Source: an uncultured bacterium
Lineage (GTDB): Bacteria; Babelota; Babeliae; Babelales; Babelaceae
Length of the DNA: 64,000 nt
Assembly: GCA_963717435.1 (NCBI GenBank)
Contig: OY970332.1
Location: 640,001 to 704,000 of the forward strand
Reading direction: 5' to 3'
The translations under genes and the position numbers were made by a program. Below the pieces are notes generated by a model that did not search any database, had not been told where the DNA came from, and saw only the letters and a list, made by a program, of their open reading frames with translations. Position 1 is the first letter of the stretch. Every line of letters starts with the position of its first letter. Shown piece by piece: positions 38,243 through 62,388 of this stretch.

Positions 38243-38716
38243 ATGAATAATAACGGAAATAAGAGATTTTTTTATACACTAGCGTTTGTTTCGATGCTTA
38301 TATCTTCGAGTATTTACTCACTTGTTGTATTCCCGAGTATATCAATCGAAAATAATACAGATTTTGAAATACAAGTTTCTTTTACTCTAGGTGCGACAAA
38401 GAGTGGCAATACCCCGGCACGTGCTACTGTAAAACCGCCTATTCCTGTACGTGGCCCGTCATCGGAAGCCTTTAATTGTAAGAATGTAGGAGAGGCAAGA
38501 AGCTTGATAATCAAAGCTAAAAGTCAAACTAGTACTGATTTAGGACGCTGTGGTGTTAATAATTTAAAAATTACAAGTTCAAATGCGACTTTGTTTGAAG
38601 CAACTGAACCTATATATTTTAATATTCTTGTCAGAGATAAGGGTATTAAAATAAACAAAGAAAATAGCAGATTTAAAGTAGATATTAACGTTGGAAGTAC
38701 TGGTAAGAAAAATTAG
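38243..38716 (+). CDS. Hypothetical secreted beta-rich protein
   Basis: Signal peptide, 'ISIENNT' start of the mature domain, two Cys. Confidence 0.65.
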   Translation: MNNNGNKRFFYTLAFVSMLISSSIYSLVVFPSISIENNTDFEIQVSFTLGATKSGNTPARATVKPPIPVRGPSSEAFNCKNVGEARSLIIKAKSQTSTDLGRCGVNNLKITSSNATLFEATEPIYFNILVRDKGIKINKENSRFKVDINVGSTGKKN

Positions 38717-38744
38717 GTGTTTATAATAATTTTATGGAGGGTTT

Positions 38745-40412
38745 ATGAAAAAGAGTGGTGTTTTTGTCTTAACAATGTTGCTAATTAACTTTGGGAACAT
38801 TTTTTCAGTCAAATATTCTATTACCAACGTCACAAAAGAGAAATTGTACGTGGAAATTTTTTCTGGCGTAGGGGAGCAGGCCCAATCTGTTATACCGGCC
38901 ATAACTACAGCTGGCTTAGCTGCGATTTCTATGCACGATTGTTTAAATGGTTTTTCTATAACTTTAGAATCAGGGCAGTCTTACAGGGTTGATGCTCCAT
39001 GTTGTATAAGTAATATAAAGGTTAGTAGATCAGATAGTTTTGATAAGGTTATTGCAACTAGATACGGGGATTACTGTGCATCAAATGATGTTTACATTCA
39101 TAAGTCTGATATAGATAGTTTTTATTTAGATTCAAATCATGACGCAAGTGATTATGAAAAAAGGACTGCGGGTATTGCGGAAATTTCAAAATCGTCAGCA
39201 GCAGATTTGGCAGTTATGGCCTCACAAATCAAAAGTGGGGTTATAGATTTTAAATTTATAGCCAACAAGCCAGTAGGTACCGGTGGATTAACCGATGCCC
39301 TTATTGAATCTATAAAAAAATCTAATATTGAGGCTAAAGCAAAAGACAAAGAAGGTAATAATTTACTTCAACAATTGATTATAGCAAATCCTGTTTTTGC
39401 AGGAATGGGGCCTGATGTGCTTTCAAATGCTGAGAATTATGTTTCAGCAGGCCTTTTGAAACAAAATAATAAAAATGGGGATAATGCTGTTGCTACAGCA
39501 GCAAAAATTGATAGTAGAGATTGGGCATTGTTTCTGGTTAGGTATCATGGAAATGTTTTAATTTCAAATAATAATAAGCAAACTCCATTACATCTTGCTG
39601 CATTAAAAAATGATATTTACTTGATACAGTTATTCATAAAAGCCGCTACGGTTACTCCAGGCATAAAGGAGCAAGCTATGAATCGGTATATAAATCAACG
39701 TGATTCCTCAGGCAAAACTGCGTTTGATTTGATAACTGATATAAACATATTATCAAGTTTAATTATGGAGCCAATCAGAACCTTGAATTATAAGCCTGAA
39801 ATTACCGATGTAAACAGAGTAGTTTCACAAAATGGAGACACTTATTTAATTGCGGCTTTAAAAAATAATTTATCTAATTTTGCAACCAAATTACTTTCTA
39901 TGGGGGCAGATCCTAATATTAAAAATGGTGACGGTAGGACAGCGATTTTTTATGTCTTAATGAATATTAAATCAGGCGAAGGAATACCTTTGTTAAAATC
40001 ATTAATTGAAAAAAAAGTTGACTTGAATATTGTAGATAAATTTGGAATTACGCCATTAATAGTTGCAACTAACGCAAAAGATATTAAATATATTGATCTT
40101 TTGCTTTCAAATGGAGTCAATATAAATCAGCAGGATGCTGGCTCTAAGTTAATAACTCCAACTATGCGCGTAGAGTCTGTTACACCGCTTTTAATTGCTG
40201 TAAATTCTGGTGATAATAAGCTTGTAAGATATCTAATATCCAAGGGCGCTGATGTAAATTTAAAATATCCAGTTCAATTTGGAAAAAGCAAAGAAAAAGT
40301 GATGGTGAGTTTGGATCAGATAATCGATATAGCTAAAATCAAGGGTGTAAATATTAGGGAGTTAAAACCTAAACAGGAGCCTAAGCAACCAGAGAAGCCA
40401 GCTAATAGTTAG
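38745..40412 (+). CDS. Secreted ankyrin-repeat protein (paralog 1)
   Basis: Signal peptide, Cys-containing N-domain, QTPLHLAA, GITPLIVA, TPLLIAV...GADVN. Confidence 0.9.
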   Translation: MKKSGVFVLTMLLINFGNIFSVKYSITNVTKEKLYVEIFSGVGEQAQSVIPAITTAGLAAISMHDCLNGFSITLESGQSYRVDAPCCISNIKVSRSDSFDKVIATRYGDYCASNDVYIHKSDIDSFYLDSNHDASDYEKRTAGIAEISKSSAADLAVMASQIKSGVIDFKFIANKPVGTGGLTDALIESIKKSNIEAKAKDKEGNNLLQQLIIANPVFAGMGPDVLSNAENYVSAGLLKQNNKNGDNAVATAAKIDSRDWALFLVRYHGNVLISNNNKQTPLHLAALKNDIYLIQLFIKAATVTPGIKEQAMNRYINQRDSSGKTAFDLITDINILSSLIMEPIRTLNYKPEITDVNRVVSQNGDTYLIAALKNNLSNFATKLLSMGADPNIKNGDGRTAIFYVLMNIKSGEGIPLLKSLIEKKVDLNIVDKFGITPLIVATNAKDIKYIDLLLSNGVNINQQDAGSKLITPTMRVESVTPLLIAVNSGDNKLVRYLISKGADVNLKYPVQFGKSKEKVMVSLDQIIDIAKIKGVNIRELKPKQEPKQPEKPANS

Positions 40413-40520
40413 TTTTTTTACGCTATTATTTGGAATTTTAATTGCTTGGCCCAAGCTAAAAAATATAGGGTTTGAAAGAATTAGAAAATTGTGTGCTTAT
40501 AATAATTTTATGGAGGATTT

Positions 40521-42185
40521 ATGAAGAAGATAGGTGTTTTTGCTTTGACGATGTTGCTAATTAATTTTGGGAATATTTTTTCGGTCAAATATTCTATTAC
40601 CAATATCACAAAAGAGAAATTGTATGTAAAGATTTCTCCTAGTTTAGGAGAACGTGGTCAATCCGTTATACCGGCAGTAACTACTGCAGGTTTATCTGCA
40701 ATCGCGATGCACGATTGTTTAAGTGGCCTTTCTATAACTTTAGAATCAGGGCAATCTTACAGAGTTGATGAACCATGTTGTATGAGTAAAATAAAGGTTA
40801 GTAGGTCAGATAGCTTTGACAATGTTCTTACAACCAGAGACGGGGACTATTGTGCATCAGACGATGTTTACATTCATAAGTCTGATACAGATAGTTTTTA
40901 TATAGATTCGAATCGTGATCTAAATGACTATGAAAAAAGAACTGCGGCTATTGCAGGAATTTCAAAAGCAGTGACAGCAGATTTGGCAGTTATAGATTCG
41001 CAAATCAAGAGCGGAGTTATAGATTTAAAATTTATAGCCAATAAGCCAGTAGGTACCGGTGGATTAACCGATGCTATTATTGAATCTATCAAAAAATCTA
41101 ATATTGACGCTAAAAAACAAGACAAAGACGGGAACAATTTACTTCAGCAATTGATTATAGCAAATCCTGTTTTTGCAGGGATAGGGCCTGATGTGCTTTC
41201 AAATGGTGAAAATTATGTTTCAGCAGGTCTTTTGGAAGAAAAGAATAAAAATGGAGATACGCCGCTTGCTACAGCAGCAAAAATTGATAGTAGAGAGTGG
41301 GCATTGTTTCTGGTTAGGCACCATGCAAATGTTTTAACTTCAGATAATAATAAGCAAACTCCATTACATATTGCTGCATTAAAAAATGATATTTACTTAA
41401 TACAGTTATTTATAAAAGCGGCTAAAATGTTAGGCGTGAGCGATGCAGCTATCACCCAGTACCTAAATCAAGCCGATTCTTCAGGTAAAACTGCATTTGA
41501 TTTGATAACCGACCTAAAGATATTATCAACTTTGATAACTGAGCCGCTTAGAACCCTGTATTTTAAGCCTGAAATTACTGATATAAACAGAGTAGTTTCA
41601 AAAAATGGAGACACTTATTTAATGGCGGCTATAAAAAATAATCTAACTGATCTTGCGACCAAGTTACTTTCTATGGGTGCTAATCCCAGCACTAAAAATA
41701 CTGATGGTAGGACAGCGATTTTTTATGTTTTAATGAATATGACATCAGACGAAGGAATGCCATTGTTGAAATTATTAATTGAAAAAAAAGTTGACTTAAA
41801 TCTTTTAGATAAATTTGGAGTTACGCCATTAATAGTTGCAACTAACGCAAAAGATAATAAATATATTGATCTTTTGGTTTCAAATGGAGCCAATCTAAAT
41901 CAACAAGATCCTGCTTCTAAATTAATAACTCCGGTCATGCGAGTAGAGTCTGTTACACCACTTTTAATTGCTGTAAATTCTGGTGATAATAAGCTTGTAA
42001 GATATCTGATATCCAAGGGAGCTGATGTAAATTTAAAATATCCAGTTCAATTTGCAAAAAACAAAGAAAAACTGATATTGAATTTGGAGCAGATAATCGG
42101 CGCGGCTCAAATTAAGGGTGTAATCATTAGGGAGTTAAAACCTAAACAGGAGCTTAAGCAACCAGAGAAGCCAGCTAATAGTTAG
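40521..42185 (+). CDS. Secreted ankyrin-repeat protein (paralog 2)
   Basis: Collinear and highly similar to 38745-40412. Confidence 0.9.
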   Translation: MKKIGVFALTMLLINFGNIFSVKYSITNITKEKLYVKISPSLGERGQSVIPAVTTAGLSAIAMHDCLSGLSITLESGQSYRVDEPCCMSKIKVSRSDSFDNVLTTRDGDYCASDDVYIHKSDTDSFYIDSNRDLNDYEKRTAAIAGISKAVTADLAVIDSQIKSGVIDLKFIANKPVGTGGLTDAIIESIKKSNIDAKKQDKDGNNLLQQLIIANPVFAGIGPDVLSNGENYVSAGLLEEKNKNGDTPLATAAKIDSREWALFLVRHHANVLTSDNNKQTPLHIAALKNDIYLIQLFIKAAKMLGVSDAAITQYLNQADSSGKTAFDLITDLKILSTLITEPLRTLYFKPEITDINRVVSKNGDTYLMAAIKNNLTDLATKLLSMGANPSTKNTDGRTAIFYVLMNMTSDEGMPLLKLLIEKKVDLNLLDKFGVTPLIVATNAKDNKYIDLLVSNGANLNQQDPASKLITPVMRVESVTPLLIAVNSGDNKLVRYLISKGADVNLKYPVQFAKNKEKLILNLEQIIGAAQIKGVIIRELKPKQELKQPEKPANS

Positions 42186-59848: not shown

Positions 59849-60841
59849 TTAGAGACTCTTTAGAGAATTTATTGTTATATTCTTTTCAAAATCAAGTAAG
59901 TTTACAAGTAATTTATCTATTAATTCTTCGTCATCTATTTCACTTAAATATTTTTGTGTTAAATATTTAATATTCTCTGGATTAGCTCTTTCTAATAAAA
60001 TTTCTGCGATTTTTATTAGATTATTTATATCTTCTTCTTTCATACAATCAATATTGTCAATATATTCAATAAGTTTAAATAGAACTAGGTCCACAGCATT
60101 TTTTATGCAGGCTTTATCTTCCAAGCTAAATATATTGTCTGCGTTGGGATTATAAGTTTTCAGTTCTTGATTTACATCGGCACCATTTTCTACCAAAAGT
60201 TTCACTGTTTCAAGACAGGGTATATAGGGCTCTAAAGCCAGAGATAACGGTGTGCTGAAATTGATTGATATATGTGATGTTTTAATAAAAGGTCGGTCTA
60301 GGCGTACTATAGCAATATCTAATTCATGTACTTTGGCGTACTCGTTTATAAATAAATTTAACTTATCAAGTTGTGGCAAAACGTCTTTTAAAAAATTAAT
60401 ATCATTGAGACAAACTGCCAAATGCAGGCCGTTGATTAAATATCTCAGGTGCTCTTTTTCGATTTCTTCCGTTTCAAATGGGAAATCGTTGGGGAGTGAT
60501 CCATAATCAATCGCAAGAAATTCAACATCAATAAATCCAACAAAAATCGAAAAATCTGGCACTTTTTTGTCTATTTTTTCTAAGAGATAATCGTTAACTT
60601 TTTTTGTATAGATTTTTTTACCAATTTCATGAGCAAACTTACTTGTGCCGTTGACTTGATCTAGGTATCTTATTGGATCTCTGGTATATACCGAATTTTT
60701 CTCATTTGAGGTTTTTTGTGATTTTGAATCGACATTTTGGCTGAAAAAACCGCTATCAGGTCCATTTCTTTTCATAGAAAGACTGTTTTCAGTGAATAAG
60801 CTTGATATTAAAATTGTTAAGAAGAGATTCGAAAATTTCAT
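59849..60841 (-). CDS. Secreted protein with degenerate ankyrin repeats
   Basis: Signal peptide, GLHLAV, TPLSLA...VKLLVENGADVN. Confidence 0.75.
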   Translation of the reverse strand: MKFSNLFLTILISSLFTENSLSMKRNGPDSGFFSQNVDSKSQKTSNEKNSVYTRDPIRYLDQVNGTSKFAHEIGKKIYTKKVNDYLLEKIDKKVPDFSIFVGFIDVEFLAIDYGSLPNDFPFETEEIEKEHLRYLINGLHLAVCLNDINFLKDVLPQLDKLNLFINEYAKVHELDIAIVRLDRPFIKTSHISINFSTPLSLALEPYIPCLETVKLLVENGADVNQELKTYNPNADNIFSLEDKACIKNAVDLVLFKLIEYIDNIDCMKEEDINNLIKIAEILLERANPENIKYLTQKYLSEIDDEELIDKLLVNLLDFEKNITINSLKSL

Positions 60842-60992
60842 AAACCGTCCACTATTGTTATTTTTAATTGATTTTTAAACTATATTTGTATTATACAGTA
60901 AGTAAAAATTGTTTTCAAAAGGGCTTAAACTTCGGGTCTATAAAATAGAATTTGGGGGATATTGGGATTGACTGCGTGTGGTCTAGCTCAGA

Positions 60993-61030
60993 AGACTGGC
61001 CTGCCATTCATTTCTGAAGGAAATGAATGG
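60993..61030 (-). repeat. tRNA 3'-trailer hairpin repeat, copy 1
   Basis: AGACTGGCCTGCCATTCATTTCTGAAGGAAATGAATGG (plus strand). Confidence 0.9.
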
Positions 61031-61119
61031 AGGAGAGAGAGGGATTCGAACCCTCGATCCCGCTCTCTCGAGATAACGGTTTTCAAGACCGCCGCTTTCG
61101 ACCGCTCAGCCATCTCTCC
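61028..61119 (-). tRNA. tRNA-Ser(TGA)
   Basis: GGAGAGA/TCTCTCC acceptor stem, anticodon loop CTTGAAA, long variable arm, GGTTCGAATCC, encoded CCA. Confidence 0.95.
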
Positions 61120-61131
61120 GCGCAGAATTAT

Positions 61132-61159
61132 ATTATAGCTGAGCTTTATTTAAAATCAA
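61132..61159 (-). promoter_or_regulatory. Sigma70-like promoter of tRNA-Ser(TGA)
   Basis: Minus strand TTGATT-16 nt-TATAAT just upstream of the tRNA. Confidence 0.6.
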
Positions 61160-61265
61160 CTGAAAATGGCTATAAAATTAATATTTTTAATGTTTTTTAA
61201 ATTTAATCTAGGTTTGAGACGGATTTGTTTGGTATTGAGATGGCCTGCATGCGGCGCAGATTCAT

Positions 61266-61304
61266 GAGACTGGCCTGCCATTCATTTCTGAAAGAAATGA
61301 ATGG
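61266..61304 (-). repeat. tRNA 3'-trailer hairpin repeat, copy 2
   Basis: GAGACTGGCCTGCCATTCATTTCTGAAAGAAATGAATGG (plus strand). Confidence 0.9.
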
Positions 61305-61378
61305 TGCGCCCAGGAGGAGTCGAACCTCCAACCTTCAGATCCGTAGTCTGACGCTCTATCCAGTTGAGCTATGGGCGC
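61302..61378 (-). tRNA. tRNA-Arg(ACG)
   Basis: GCGCCCA/TGGGCGC acceptor stem, anticodon loop CTACGGA, GGTTCGACTCC, encoded CCA. Confidence 0.96.
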
Positions 61379-61463
61379 GATATTTTCGAATTTAAAATTT
61401 TTTAGAATTTTGCATGTACCTGAGTTTTCTGGTGAAGAATGATATCAGGTATATTCAGGCGCA

Positions 61464-61502
61464 GAGACTGGCCTGCCATTCATTTCTGAAAGAAATGAAT
61501 GG
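61464..61502 (-). repeat. tRNA 3'-trailer hairpin repeat, copy 3
   Basis: Identical to copy 2 over 39 bp. Confidence 0.9.
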
Positions 61503-61592
61503 TGGAGAGAGAGGGATTCGAACCCTCGCGCCCCGAATTACCGAGACTCTTGCTTAGCAGGCAAGCGCTTTAGACCACTCAGCCACCTCTCC
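61500..61592 (-). tRNA. tRNA-Ser(GCT)
   Basis: GGAGAGG/TCTCTCC acceptor stem, anticodon loop CTGCTAA, long variable arm, encoded CCA. Confidence 0.95.
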
Positions 61593-61668
61593 AAAAACAT
61601 ATACTGTAAATAATAAATTATTTGGCAGTTTATGCAAGTGTTTTCAGCTTATAGCGCCTGTTTTATGG

Positions 61669-62388
61669 CTAAACTTTGGGCGTAAATTTATTGATATCGT
61701 AAATATCAAGCTCTTTTTCGATCTCTTCTACTTGCTTTAAGATCCCCTCAAAGCCCTCTTTTCCGAACAGTTCATGCTCCGTATCTTCAAATATATCAGC
61801 CAGTTCTTCAAACTCTTTTATTGTTATTAGCGTTCTGAATTCTGGGAACAACTCAGTGTCTTCCCGTGTTTCATGAACCCGGTACATGATTATAAAGCTC
61901 TTAATGGCAAAAATAAGCTGCTGTTTATTTTTGGGATCAGAGATTTTGTCTTGTTGAGAAAGATTTATTATCTGGTCTGTTAAAACGCGTCCTGCTTGGT
62001 GCTGTTCGAGTAAGCTGTTAACCAGATCCAGTAATTTCCCGGCTTTTTGAAATCTTGTAAATATATACTGCTCTTCTGATTTCTCATGATAATCTTCGAT
62101 AAAGTTTCTGATTATTGAAGCAGATTTTTTTAGATTTTCTATATTAAAATTTTTATTGTTATCTAGTCTTTTAACTATTTCTTCGTAAATTAATAATACT
62201 CTGTTTAATATGCCGTGCTCGCGCATCAGGTCTTCTGTTGGCGGTATATCTTCTATAAATTCTTGTTGCGTTTTTTGAGCAGGGTTAAAATTTATTTTGT
62301 TAAACTTTAAGACAATAAATACTATTATTATTGCCGCAAAAACTATTATAAAACTTAATAGTAATTTGTTTGAAAAAATTTGGTTCAT
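61669..62388 (-). CDS. Membrane-anchored hemerythrin-like (HHE) domain protein
   Basis: LMREH, YHEKSEE..F, QH..GR, HETRED..LFP; N-terminal TM. Confidence 0.85.
   Translation of the reverse strand: MNQIFSNKLLLSFIIVFAAIIIVFIVLKFNKINFNPAQKTQQEFIEDIPPTEDLMREHGILNRVLLIYEEIVKRLDNNKNFNIENLKKSASIIRNFIEDYHEKSEEQYIFTRFQKAGKLLDLVNSLLEQHQAGRVLTDQIINLSQQDKISDPKNKQQLIFAIKSFIIMYRVHETREDTELFPEFRTLITIKEFEELADIFEDTEHELFGKEGFEGILKQVEEIEKELDIYDINKFTPKV

Follow-up and report, generated by a model that had tools for sequence, protein, structure and literature searches.

Three tRNA genes in the window (the whole stretch of DNA that was analysed, 64,000 nucleotides) are each followed by nearly the same short palindrome, and this palindrome begins within the gene itself, its outermost letters being the CCA that the gene encodes. 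The question that this locus raises is what such a trailer represents: a repeat that has spread among tRNA ends, a signal with which the cell matures or protects its tRNAs, a site that acts in the DNA, a transcription terminator, or simply the trace of a local duplication. ARAGORN placed exactly three tRNA genes in the 64-kb window, all of them on the minus strand, and Rfam agrees. These genes, their trailers and the neighboring sites are as follows.

61028..61119, minus strand: tRNA-Ser(tga), encoded CCA at 61028-61030 (ARAGORN; Rfam RF00005, 62.1 bits)
61302..61378, minus strand: tRNA-Arg(acg), encoded CCA at 61302-61304 (ARAGORN; Rfam RF00005, 70 bits)
61500..61592, minus strand: tRNA-Ser(gct), encoded CCA at 61500-61502 (ARAGORN; Rfam RF00005, 65 bits)
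60993..61030, minus strand: trailer unit 1, behind tRNA-Ser(tga), with hairpin 61004-61030 (CCA foot 61028-61030, TGG partner 61004-61006), linker CAGG 61000-61003, second CCA 60997-60999 and GTCT 60993-60996; fold -13.0 kcal/mol, z -3.11
61267..61304, minus strand: trailer unit 2, behind tRNA-Arg(acg), with hairpin 61278-61304, then CAGG, CCA and GTCT; fold -14.5 kcal/mol, z -4.52
61465..61502, minus strand: trailer unit 3, behind tRNA-Ser(gct), with hairpin 61476-61502, then CAGG, CCA and GTCT; fold -15.2 kcal/mol, z -4.13
61238..61266, minus strand: degenerate unit that comes second behind tRNA-Arg(acg), with a short CATG...CATG palindrome and, after it, CAGG and CCA
61132..61159, minus strand: promoter-like site just upstream of tRNA-Ser(tga), matching 10 of 12 consensus positions (consensus match only)

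Read in the RNA sense, each of the three trailers is 38 nt long: CCA and an 8-nt arm lead into a loop of 5 nt, after which come the complement of the arm, TGG, CAGG and finally CCAGTCT; in all three, the encoded CCA pairs with TGG to form the first 3 pairs of a stem of 11-12 bp, and the copies vary in loop letters only. At a tolerance of at most one mismatch, the 27-nt hairpin occurs at 3 sites, compared with 0.00 expected from 100 dinucleotide-preserving shuffles. Consistently, RNA folding of the three trailers paired CCA with UGG in every case (-13.0 to -15.2 kcal/mol, z -3.1 to -4.5). The initial annotation had proposed that the three tRNAs share a trailer with a CCA-based stem, CAGG and a second CCA, and this proposal was borne out by ARAGORN, alignment, folds and shuffles; the degenerate relative that it had noted at 61238-61266 is also real, the short CATG palindrome being once again accompanied by CAGG and CCA. 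When full pre-tRNAs were folded, two of the three (Arg and Ser(gct)) formed a cloverleaf beside the trailer hairpin, with the unpaired discriminator base between them. Among the perfect hairpins listed with stems of at least 8 bp (61 rows, which overlap and so represent fewer distinct hairpins), CCTG precedes the three trailers only, and apart from the tRNA and tmRNA models, Rfam gave no match over the trailers at E <= 1. The promoter-like site suggests that tRNA-Ser(tga) may have a transcription start of its own, so a single long transcript with the Arg trailer inside it need not be assumed. Among public sequencing runs, the largest share of sampled words of 60900-61700 that was found in any run was 0.22, and it was 0.07 or less in RNA runs; contigs from three RNA runs covered tRNA bodies only, probably from other organisms, and one DNA run yielded a 151-nt contig identical to 60901-61051.

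The genome to which the window belongs (G000) is a single contig of 1,198,203 bp with 34.6% G+C and 35 tRNAs, 33 of which encode CCA; for its RNase G gene, the closest relatives belong to Candidatus Dependentiae / Babelota / Babeliales (57-70% identity). A CCA:UGG hairpin followed by a C-N(1-3)-G linker and CC stands behind 16 of the 35 tRNAs. The count by regular expression is 17, including Pro, after one false match (Met at 1157447) was dropped, and it rises to 20 of 35 if the variant-tailed Leu(taa), Glu and Asp are added. The hairpins fall into at least three classes, namely, the AT-rich one seen in the window and two GC-rich ones, of which one is short and the other long, and both Gly(gcc) and Pro carry tandem units. 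Stems of the AT class are identical throughout this genome and their loops differ, a pattern more suggestive of selection on the stem than of recent copying. Trailers are absent at those G000 tRNAs that have another tRNA within ~20 nt downstream or that lie in an rRNA operon. In total, G000 holds ~30 copies, ~20 of which (i.e., about two-thirds) abut the 3' end of a tRNA or tmRNA. The ~10 copies that lie away from tRNAs occur in both orientations, with feet of CCC/GGG or similar and with CAGG- or CGGG-like linkers followed by CC; all of them are intergenic, save for one in-frame 20-nt copy (8 residues) in a DHO_dh/phosphoribosyltransferase ORF. The region upstream of one non-tRNA copy, at 413.4 kb, was considered as a conserved small RNA and rejected: it had no Rfam match, it gave two short DNA matches only among 31 relatives (27-29 nt; G027, G029), and an exact 13-mer from it was found in 2 of 151 genomes.

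We assessed the distribution of the units across the order with a pattern anchored on the T loop (GTTCRA, 15 nt, CCA, 16-46 nt, TGGC, 2-3 nt, GCCA). This pattern matched in 109 of 151 genomes, giving 615 matches in total versus 1 for the reversed control, and it also matched in 80 of 121 genomes of a second sample, all from the same order; the other 42 of the 151 genomes held no match to the pattern. Identical classes turn up in different families of the order, and near-identical hairpins of 20-27 nt likewise recur between families, indicative of either sequence-level constraint or recent transfer. The units are not restricted to tRNAs, since tmRNA genes carry one directly after the CCA in all five of the Rfam-confirmed loci that were checked.

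More specifically, the unit comprises, in this order, an imperfect palindrome (25-62 nt) closed at its base by the three pairs of CCA:TGG, a linker and a further CCA. The linker is 4-5 nt of the form C-N(1-3)-G, most often CAGG, and its length is constant. Where the unit follows a tRNA or tmRNA gene, its first CCA is also the one that ends the gene, and the junction is exact in every copy: the stem begins at C74, and N73 is never included. The second CCA is nearly universal among copies. The initial annotation had suggested a duplication of the CCA, and as an observation this stood; given that tandem and dispersed copies exist, the most fitting reading of the second CCA is that a next unit begins there and is usually cut short. 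The first and second letters behind it agree with those behind the first CCA somewhat more often than in permutations (0.55 versus 0.36 and 0.52 versus 0.40, on rows that are interrelated), and the excess extends no further. Stems reach ~20 bp or more in the long classes, so that a fixed length is no feature of the units; on this ground, we rejected a 'minihelix' for RNase P, in which a 12-bp stem would mimic the acceptor and T arms. Between TGGC and GCCA, the spacer measures 2 to 4 nt. Finally, a T-rich, TTTAA-like tail was seen in 34 of 103 tails, compared with 9% of random 18-mers. One tail, TGGCAGGCCAG, matches the 3' end of the G000 tRNA-Trp exactly when reverse-complemented. A link between the two was rejected, because the tRNA-Trp end is nearly invariant across the order and the tails vary; as there is no covariation, the match is treated as unexplained or due to chance.

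To what extent the stems are maintained as stems was read from 93 distinct hairpins taken from the stored loci, in which the search pattern itself dictates the first three pairs, so that these are uninformative. At stem position 4, we found G-C in 45, T-A in 36 and A-T in 9 hairpins (i.e., a Watson-Crick pair in 90 of 93); position 5 shows four types of Watson-Crick pair, and positions 10-11 also vary with compensation. The pairing is under selection. In the GC-rich classes, two non-pairing positions are kept, and these are pyrimidine-pyrimidine on the tRNA sense strand; overall, non-pairing positions amounted to 158 pyrimidine-pyrimidine versus 16 purine-purine on the RNA sense strand. G.U on the sense strand (6, versus 11 A.C) was no commoner than on the other strand. 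The mismatch types and the G.U counts give nothing that points to selection on the sense RNA in particular. Under RNA parameters, 46 of 52 GC-class hairpins fold better on the antisense strand, and under DNA parameters 47 of 52 do; the gap is ~1 kcal/mol.

Comparisons between genomes revealed how the units are distributed over orthologous tRNAs. In G009, from another genus of the same family, units stand at 23 of 34 tRNAs, including the orthologous Ser-Arg-Ser cluster, and nearly all of them represent a stem variant in which the first variable pair has changed on both sides. The same genome carries a single complex variant of 61-62 nt behind Thr(cgt), His and Met, three unrelated tRNAs. Likewise, one 34-nt variant stands behind several tRNAs of G074, again including the orthologous Ser-Arg-Ser cluster. 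Many orthologous tRNAs differ between G000 and G009 in the presence or the class of a unit, and within genus g23, the class found at tRNA-Phe or at tRNA-Arg(acg) differs between species. In this genus, one copy is a chimera of two classes, and one class heads a module of ~150 nt that is common to four tRNAs and stands in tandem in one genome. The units thus appear to be copied between tRNA ends and to turn over, an element-like behavior that is well supported by these comparisons. The homogenisation across unrelated tRNAs that the initial annotation had supposed is also observed, units being uniform within a genome and divergent between genomes.

One genome of the same family (G004, 1 contig) has no units at any of its CCA-encoding tRNAs (0 at 35 of 35; these 35 were examined out of 38 Rfam matches). 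The spacers of its Ser-Arg-Ser cluster measure 18 and 79 nt, as opposed to 121 and 182 nt in G000. Because G004 has none at 35 of 35 tRNAs, the units cannot be essential. This absence, together with the 42 of 151 genomes that lack any pattern match, demonstrates that the trailers are not an obligatory determinant of pre-tRNA 3' processing. Of the two readings that had been offered from the start, an element and a co-opted signal, the element-like part has gained from these data, that is, from the classes, the class switching, the shared variants, the tandem and dispersed copies and the absence in G004; the signal is weighed below.

The genomes were also searched for enzymes that could mobilize such units. 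A six-frame search of G000 for the Y1 transposase (PF01797) gave no match at E <= 0.01, hence there is no RAYT gene in this genome, and a reverse transcriptase domain (RVT_1) was not found there either. The only multi-copy IS of G000 is an IS481-like DDE element in 3 copies, whose inverted ends of ~20 bp are unrelated to the units; terminal repeats of the kind that a MITE of this resident transposon would share with it were thus not seen in the units. Across the order, Y1 genes are present in 54 of 151 genomes. Units occur in 45 of these 54 genomes and in 64 of the 97 without Y1, with medians of 5 and 2, respectively, an association that is weak (Mann-Whitney p = 0.0015, with no correction for relatedness). 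Among the genomes that lack Y1, eleven hold 8-19 pattern matches each, and genomes with 6 and 13 Y1 matches hold no units. An origin from Y1 or IS200 elements was rejected after inspection of 7 loci in 4 genomes, in which the end hairpins are unrelated and lack the C(N)GG-CCA linker. The 16 strict units of G000 lie 8 versus 8 on the two replication-template strands (GC-skew extremes at 499 kb and 1067 kb), and no replication-strand bias was found among them. To our knowledge, no known transposition mechanism explains the exact junction at C74 or the location of two-thirds of the copies at tRNA and tmRNA ends; the exact junction and the preference for these ends would fit a functional element as well.

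The enzymes of RNA processing were considered as well. RNase Z scored above cut-off in 0 of the 151 genomes of the order, and an RNB domain (RNase II/R) was not found in G000. RNase PH and PNPase-like domains are present in G000, along with an RNase E/G homologue of 503 aa and a protein of the PolyA_pol/CCA-adding family. A beta-CASP ribonuclease of G000 (463 aa) was considered as a trans-acting factor and rejected, because it occurs in 22 of 151 genomes only and is unrelated to unit counts. Beside the tRNA-Val cluster lies a gene for a small MBL-fold protein with a weak N-terminal likeness to RNase Z.

Our preferred reading, to which we assign a probability of roughly 0.55, is that the trailers are REP-like palindromic units anchored on CCA ends, which spread by copy-and-paste, are dispensable and presumably form a co-transcribed 3' cap. 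The window trailers would be copies from a family of palindromic units found across the Babeliales (Dependentiae), and these units may be copied among tRNA 3' ends via transposition, gene conversion or template switching, with an occasional landing elsewhere. If a unit is co-transcribed with its tRNA, the CCA of the pre-tRNA would be locked in a hairpin of -13 to -15 kcal/mol, and such a hairpin would be expected to stop the phosphorolytic 3' exonucleases RNase PH and PNPase. With these enzymes blocked, removal of the hairpin would need an endonuclease, for which the RNase E/G homologue and RNase P are candidates. On this view, the cell would tolerate the unit as a 3' cap, one that is perhaps mildly protective, and would not require it as a signal.

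The same observations can be read the other way round, with the hairpin as a dedicated signal for pre-tRNA 3' maturation or protection that presents or shields the CCA for exact endonucleolytic release in a lineage without RNase Z, the units being uniform because one trans-acting factor reads them. The strict position and orientation, the compensated pairing, the constant linker of 4-5 nt and the conservation of hairpin sequences across families argue for such a role, as does the unit on tmRNA, which shares the processing enzymes of tRNAs. The unit is also missing where the next tRNA follows within ~20 nt and RNase P would cut anyway, and the order-wide lack of RNase Z above cut-off and the failure to find RNase II/R in G000 point the same way. 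A signal of this kind should nevertheless be general, but units stand at just 16-20 of 35 tRNAs in G000 and 23 of 34 in G009, 42 of 151 genomes are without a pattern match, and G004 has none at 35 of 35 tRNAs. Class switching at the same tRNA within one genus, copies away from RNA genes and inside an ORF, and mismatch and G.U/A.C counts that show nothing specific to the sense RNA weigh against it further, and we therefore consider a dedicated signal unlikely. A further reading concerns the DNA itself. The nested palindromes (the hairpin, then TGGC-NN-GCCA, and often a T-rich stretch with TTTAAA) could be binding or crossover sites for a dimeric DNA-binding protein or a recombinase, or could arise where forks stall near highly transcribed tRNA genes and the template is switched. 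TGGC-N(2-3)-GCCA is a palindrome of double-stranded DNA that is incapable of forming an RNA hairpin; most GC-class hairpins fold better on the antisense strand (46 of 52 or 47 of 52, depending on the parameters); reverse-complement loop variants occur, which is typical of palindrome flipping, and there is the one chimeric copy; and the TTTAA-like tail is over-represented (34 of 103 versus 9%). However, the strands differ by ~1 kcal/mol only and the replication strands are used 8 versus 8, a spacer of 2-4 nt in TGGC..GCCA is awkward for a fixed crossover site, and no candidate protein was found, such that we grant a DNA-level site a slim chance.

Two simpler explanations fare worse. That the hairpins serve as transcription terminators of the tRNA genes would agree with their location at gene ends and with the third of the tails that are T-rich, some copies even having CTGGC-NNN-GCCAG and then a T run. 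Nevertheless, a scan of 60700-61800 returned 0 terminator-like sites, the window copies lack a T run, the T run where present begins 7-8 nt past the main hairpin, and ordinary terminators with a GC stem and a T run are used elsewhere in the genome; it is thus very improbable that termination is what the units are for. Lastly, a local duplication confined to this tRNA cluster was the outcome that the initial annotation had named as telling against itself, and three copies within 600 bp, two of them behind serine tRNAs with similar 3' halves, might suggest as much. The unrelated tRNA-Arg has the same trailer, though, at least 13 further copies lie in G000, and 109 of 151 genomes match, so that confinement to the cluster fails and we regard a local duplication as already refuted, its remaining chance being next to nil.

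How do the units compare with known repeats? In the mitochondrial DNA of Neurospora, GC-rich PstI palindromes reportedly flank tRNA genes (Yin, Heckman and RajBhandary, 1981). These palindromes reside in an AT-rich genome in which CCA is not encoded, and they have long been discussed as mobile elements or processing signals. They belong to an organelle and are not known to make use of CCA, in contrast to the present units, which are bacterial and have CCA in the stem. Rickettsia palindromic elements (RPE) are small repeats of reduced intracellular genomes that can lie in frame within protein genes, a likeness shared by the in-frame 20-nt unit of G000 with its 8 residues in the DHO_dh-family ORF; compared by description, RPEs are longer and have no tie to tRNA ends. 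The ends of IS200/IS605 elements form hairpins with C-rich and G-rich feet that are recognized as single strands. The resident IS200 ends are, however, unrelated to the units, 64 of 97 genomes without Y1 have units nonetheless, and there is no strand bias.

The likeness is greatest to REP sequences and BIMEs, which have stems of 8-9 bp and loops of 4-5 nt, form several families per genome, occur as dimers and arrays, and are occasionally found in genes (PMC3733652). The present units share with them that they are multi-copy imperfect palindromes of several families per genome, with arrays and rare in-gene copies. A short conserved flank is described for them too, along with unpaired 'tails', for the most part consistent with CCA, and a CGTC class that has no dedicated transposase and shows no obvious correlation with tyrosine transposase genes (PMC3733652). 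The units differ from what is described there in that they carry neither a GTAG nor a CGTC tag, their conserved flank being C(A/G)GG plus CCA, and in that their CCA is paired and is the tRNA's own end, whereas the REP tail is unpaired (PMC3733652). Moreover, about two-thirds of the units stand at tRNA and tmRNA ends and not behind ORFs, and G000 is without RAYT.

Two further systems concern the ends of tRNA genes directly. In Methanopyrus kandleri, about half of the tRNA genes have a conserved palindrome ~10 bp further downstream, which was suggested to be a signal for 3' maturation (PMC5217627). It was reported from a single archaeal species, it stands off the gene end by ~10 bp, and it does not include the CCA (PMC5217627), all in contrast to the present units. 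The leuX pre-tRNA of E. coli ends in a 3' hairpin that is removed by PNPase or RNase P. In a likeness to our trailers, this stem-loop stands directly behind the CCA in the transcript and must be removed for the tRNA to mature (PMC2811032). Unlike the units, the leuX hairpin is an ordinary Rho-independent terminator of one gene, which starts past the CCA and belongs to no repeat family (PMC2811032). The main texts of two Dependentiae genome papers make no mention of palindromes or hairpins (PMC6561590, PMC4776705), and in full-text searches of the literature, we found no description of CCA-based palindromic units at tRNA or tmRNA ends.

Palindromic repeats as such are common in bacteria, and what we did not find reported is a stem built on the universal CCA end, nor a family that stands at half or more of the tRNA genes across an order of intracellular bacteria. 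A bolder version of the story, which we hold as speculative and rather doubtful, is that a mobile hairpin targets tRNA and tmRNA genes or transcripts via its own TGG foot on the CCA, and/or that Dependentiae, being without RNase Z, use the CCA-locking hairpin and a decoy second CCA to obtain exact CCA ends. Should the units prove mobile, a targeting mechanism not yet known would be needed to account for their exact junction; if the cell uses them, they would represent an undescribed route to tRNA 3' ends in a phylum without RNase Z. For annotation, the units matter in either case, as they lengthen the spacers between tRNA genes, can pass for small RNAs or terminators, and provide a lineage marker in metagenomic data.

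Only two of the 35 tRNA genes of the genome that holds the window lack an encoded CCA, both of them lying outside the window (here and below, coordinates outside the window are those of contig OY970332.1):

704650-704734, tRNA-Leu(caa), CCA not encoded
1137890-1137963, tRNA-Lys(ctt), CCA not encoded

In G009, which represents another genus of the same family, the orthologues of both genes encode the CCA and the unit is present. The tmRNA gene of the window's genome (region 348796-349250) likewise has no full encoded CCA, the ARAGORN call ending in ...CAC, and is followed by a perfect 12-bp hairpin with the foot CAC:GTG, behind which a long GC-class unit stands in the opposite orientation. An IS481-like element with inverted ends of ~20 bp, in which rve_3 and HTH_32 domains are recognized, is present in three copies. 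One lies directly behind this gene, and another just upstream of the window start:

349531-350544, IS481-like element, behind the tmRNA gene
618258-619286, IS481-like element
638304-639332, IS481-like element, upstream of the window

The last 11 nt of tRNA-Trp (3' end, 725457-725468) match the reverse complement of the commonest unit tail, TGGCAGGCCAG, without a mismatch, and the first 8 nt of the same tRNA are also identical to this tail when it is read from its fifth letter. Comparison across the order revealed no covariation between unit tails and the tRNA-Trp end, because that end is nearly invariant while the tails vary.

At 413330-413494, a unit adjoins no annotated RNA gene, and the stretch preceding it ends in ...GACGCCA. 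The last ~29 nt of this stretch have a match of 90% identity in G027, a member of another family (L260:1501-1570), where the match is followed by a unit of another class. An Rfam search of the stretch gave no match, and an exact 13-mer taken from it is present in only 2 of the 151 genomes of the order. One possible reading of the stretch is a small RNA that has escaped annotation and whose end resembles that of a tRNA.

A conserved module of ~150 nt, headed by one GC-class hairpin, was observed in genus g23 of the order (loci L145, L148, L150-L152, L156, and L158). It follows tRNA-Phe and three arginine tRNAs, Arg(acg), Arg(tcg), and Arg(tct), and one genome has it in tandem. Its distal part includes a sequence perfectly complementary to the CCA-proximal arm.

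A short GC-class hairpin copy of 20 nt (189891-189910) lies in frame within an ORF of 575 aa that carries both DHO_dh and phosphoribosyltransferase domains, and it contributes 8 residues to this ORF; by analogy, this placement resembles that of the Rickettsia palindromic elements.

Elsewhere on the contig, a beta-CASP ribonuclease of 463 aa (423510-424898) is most similar among NCBIfam models to aCPSF1 and Cas14-type MBL-CASP, with scores below their cut-offs, and is present in only 22 of the 151 genomes. Within the window, two neighboring ORFs of ~555 aa each form a paralogue pair with at least 70% protein identity in an all-against-all protein search, and their DNA repeats (81-83% identical, spacing ~1775 nt) are as follows:

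window 38709-39008 and 40485-40784, first repeat
window 39659-39958 and 41432-41731, second repeat
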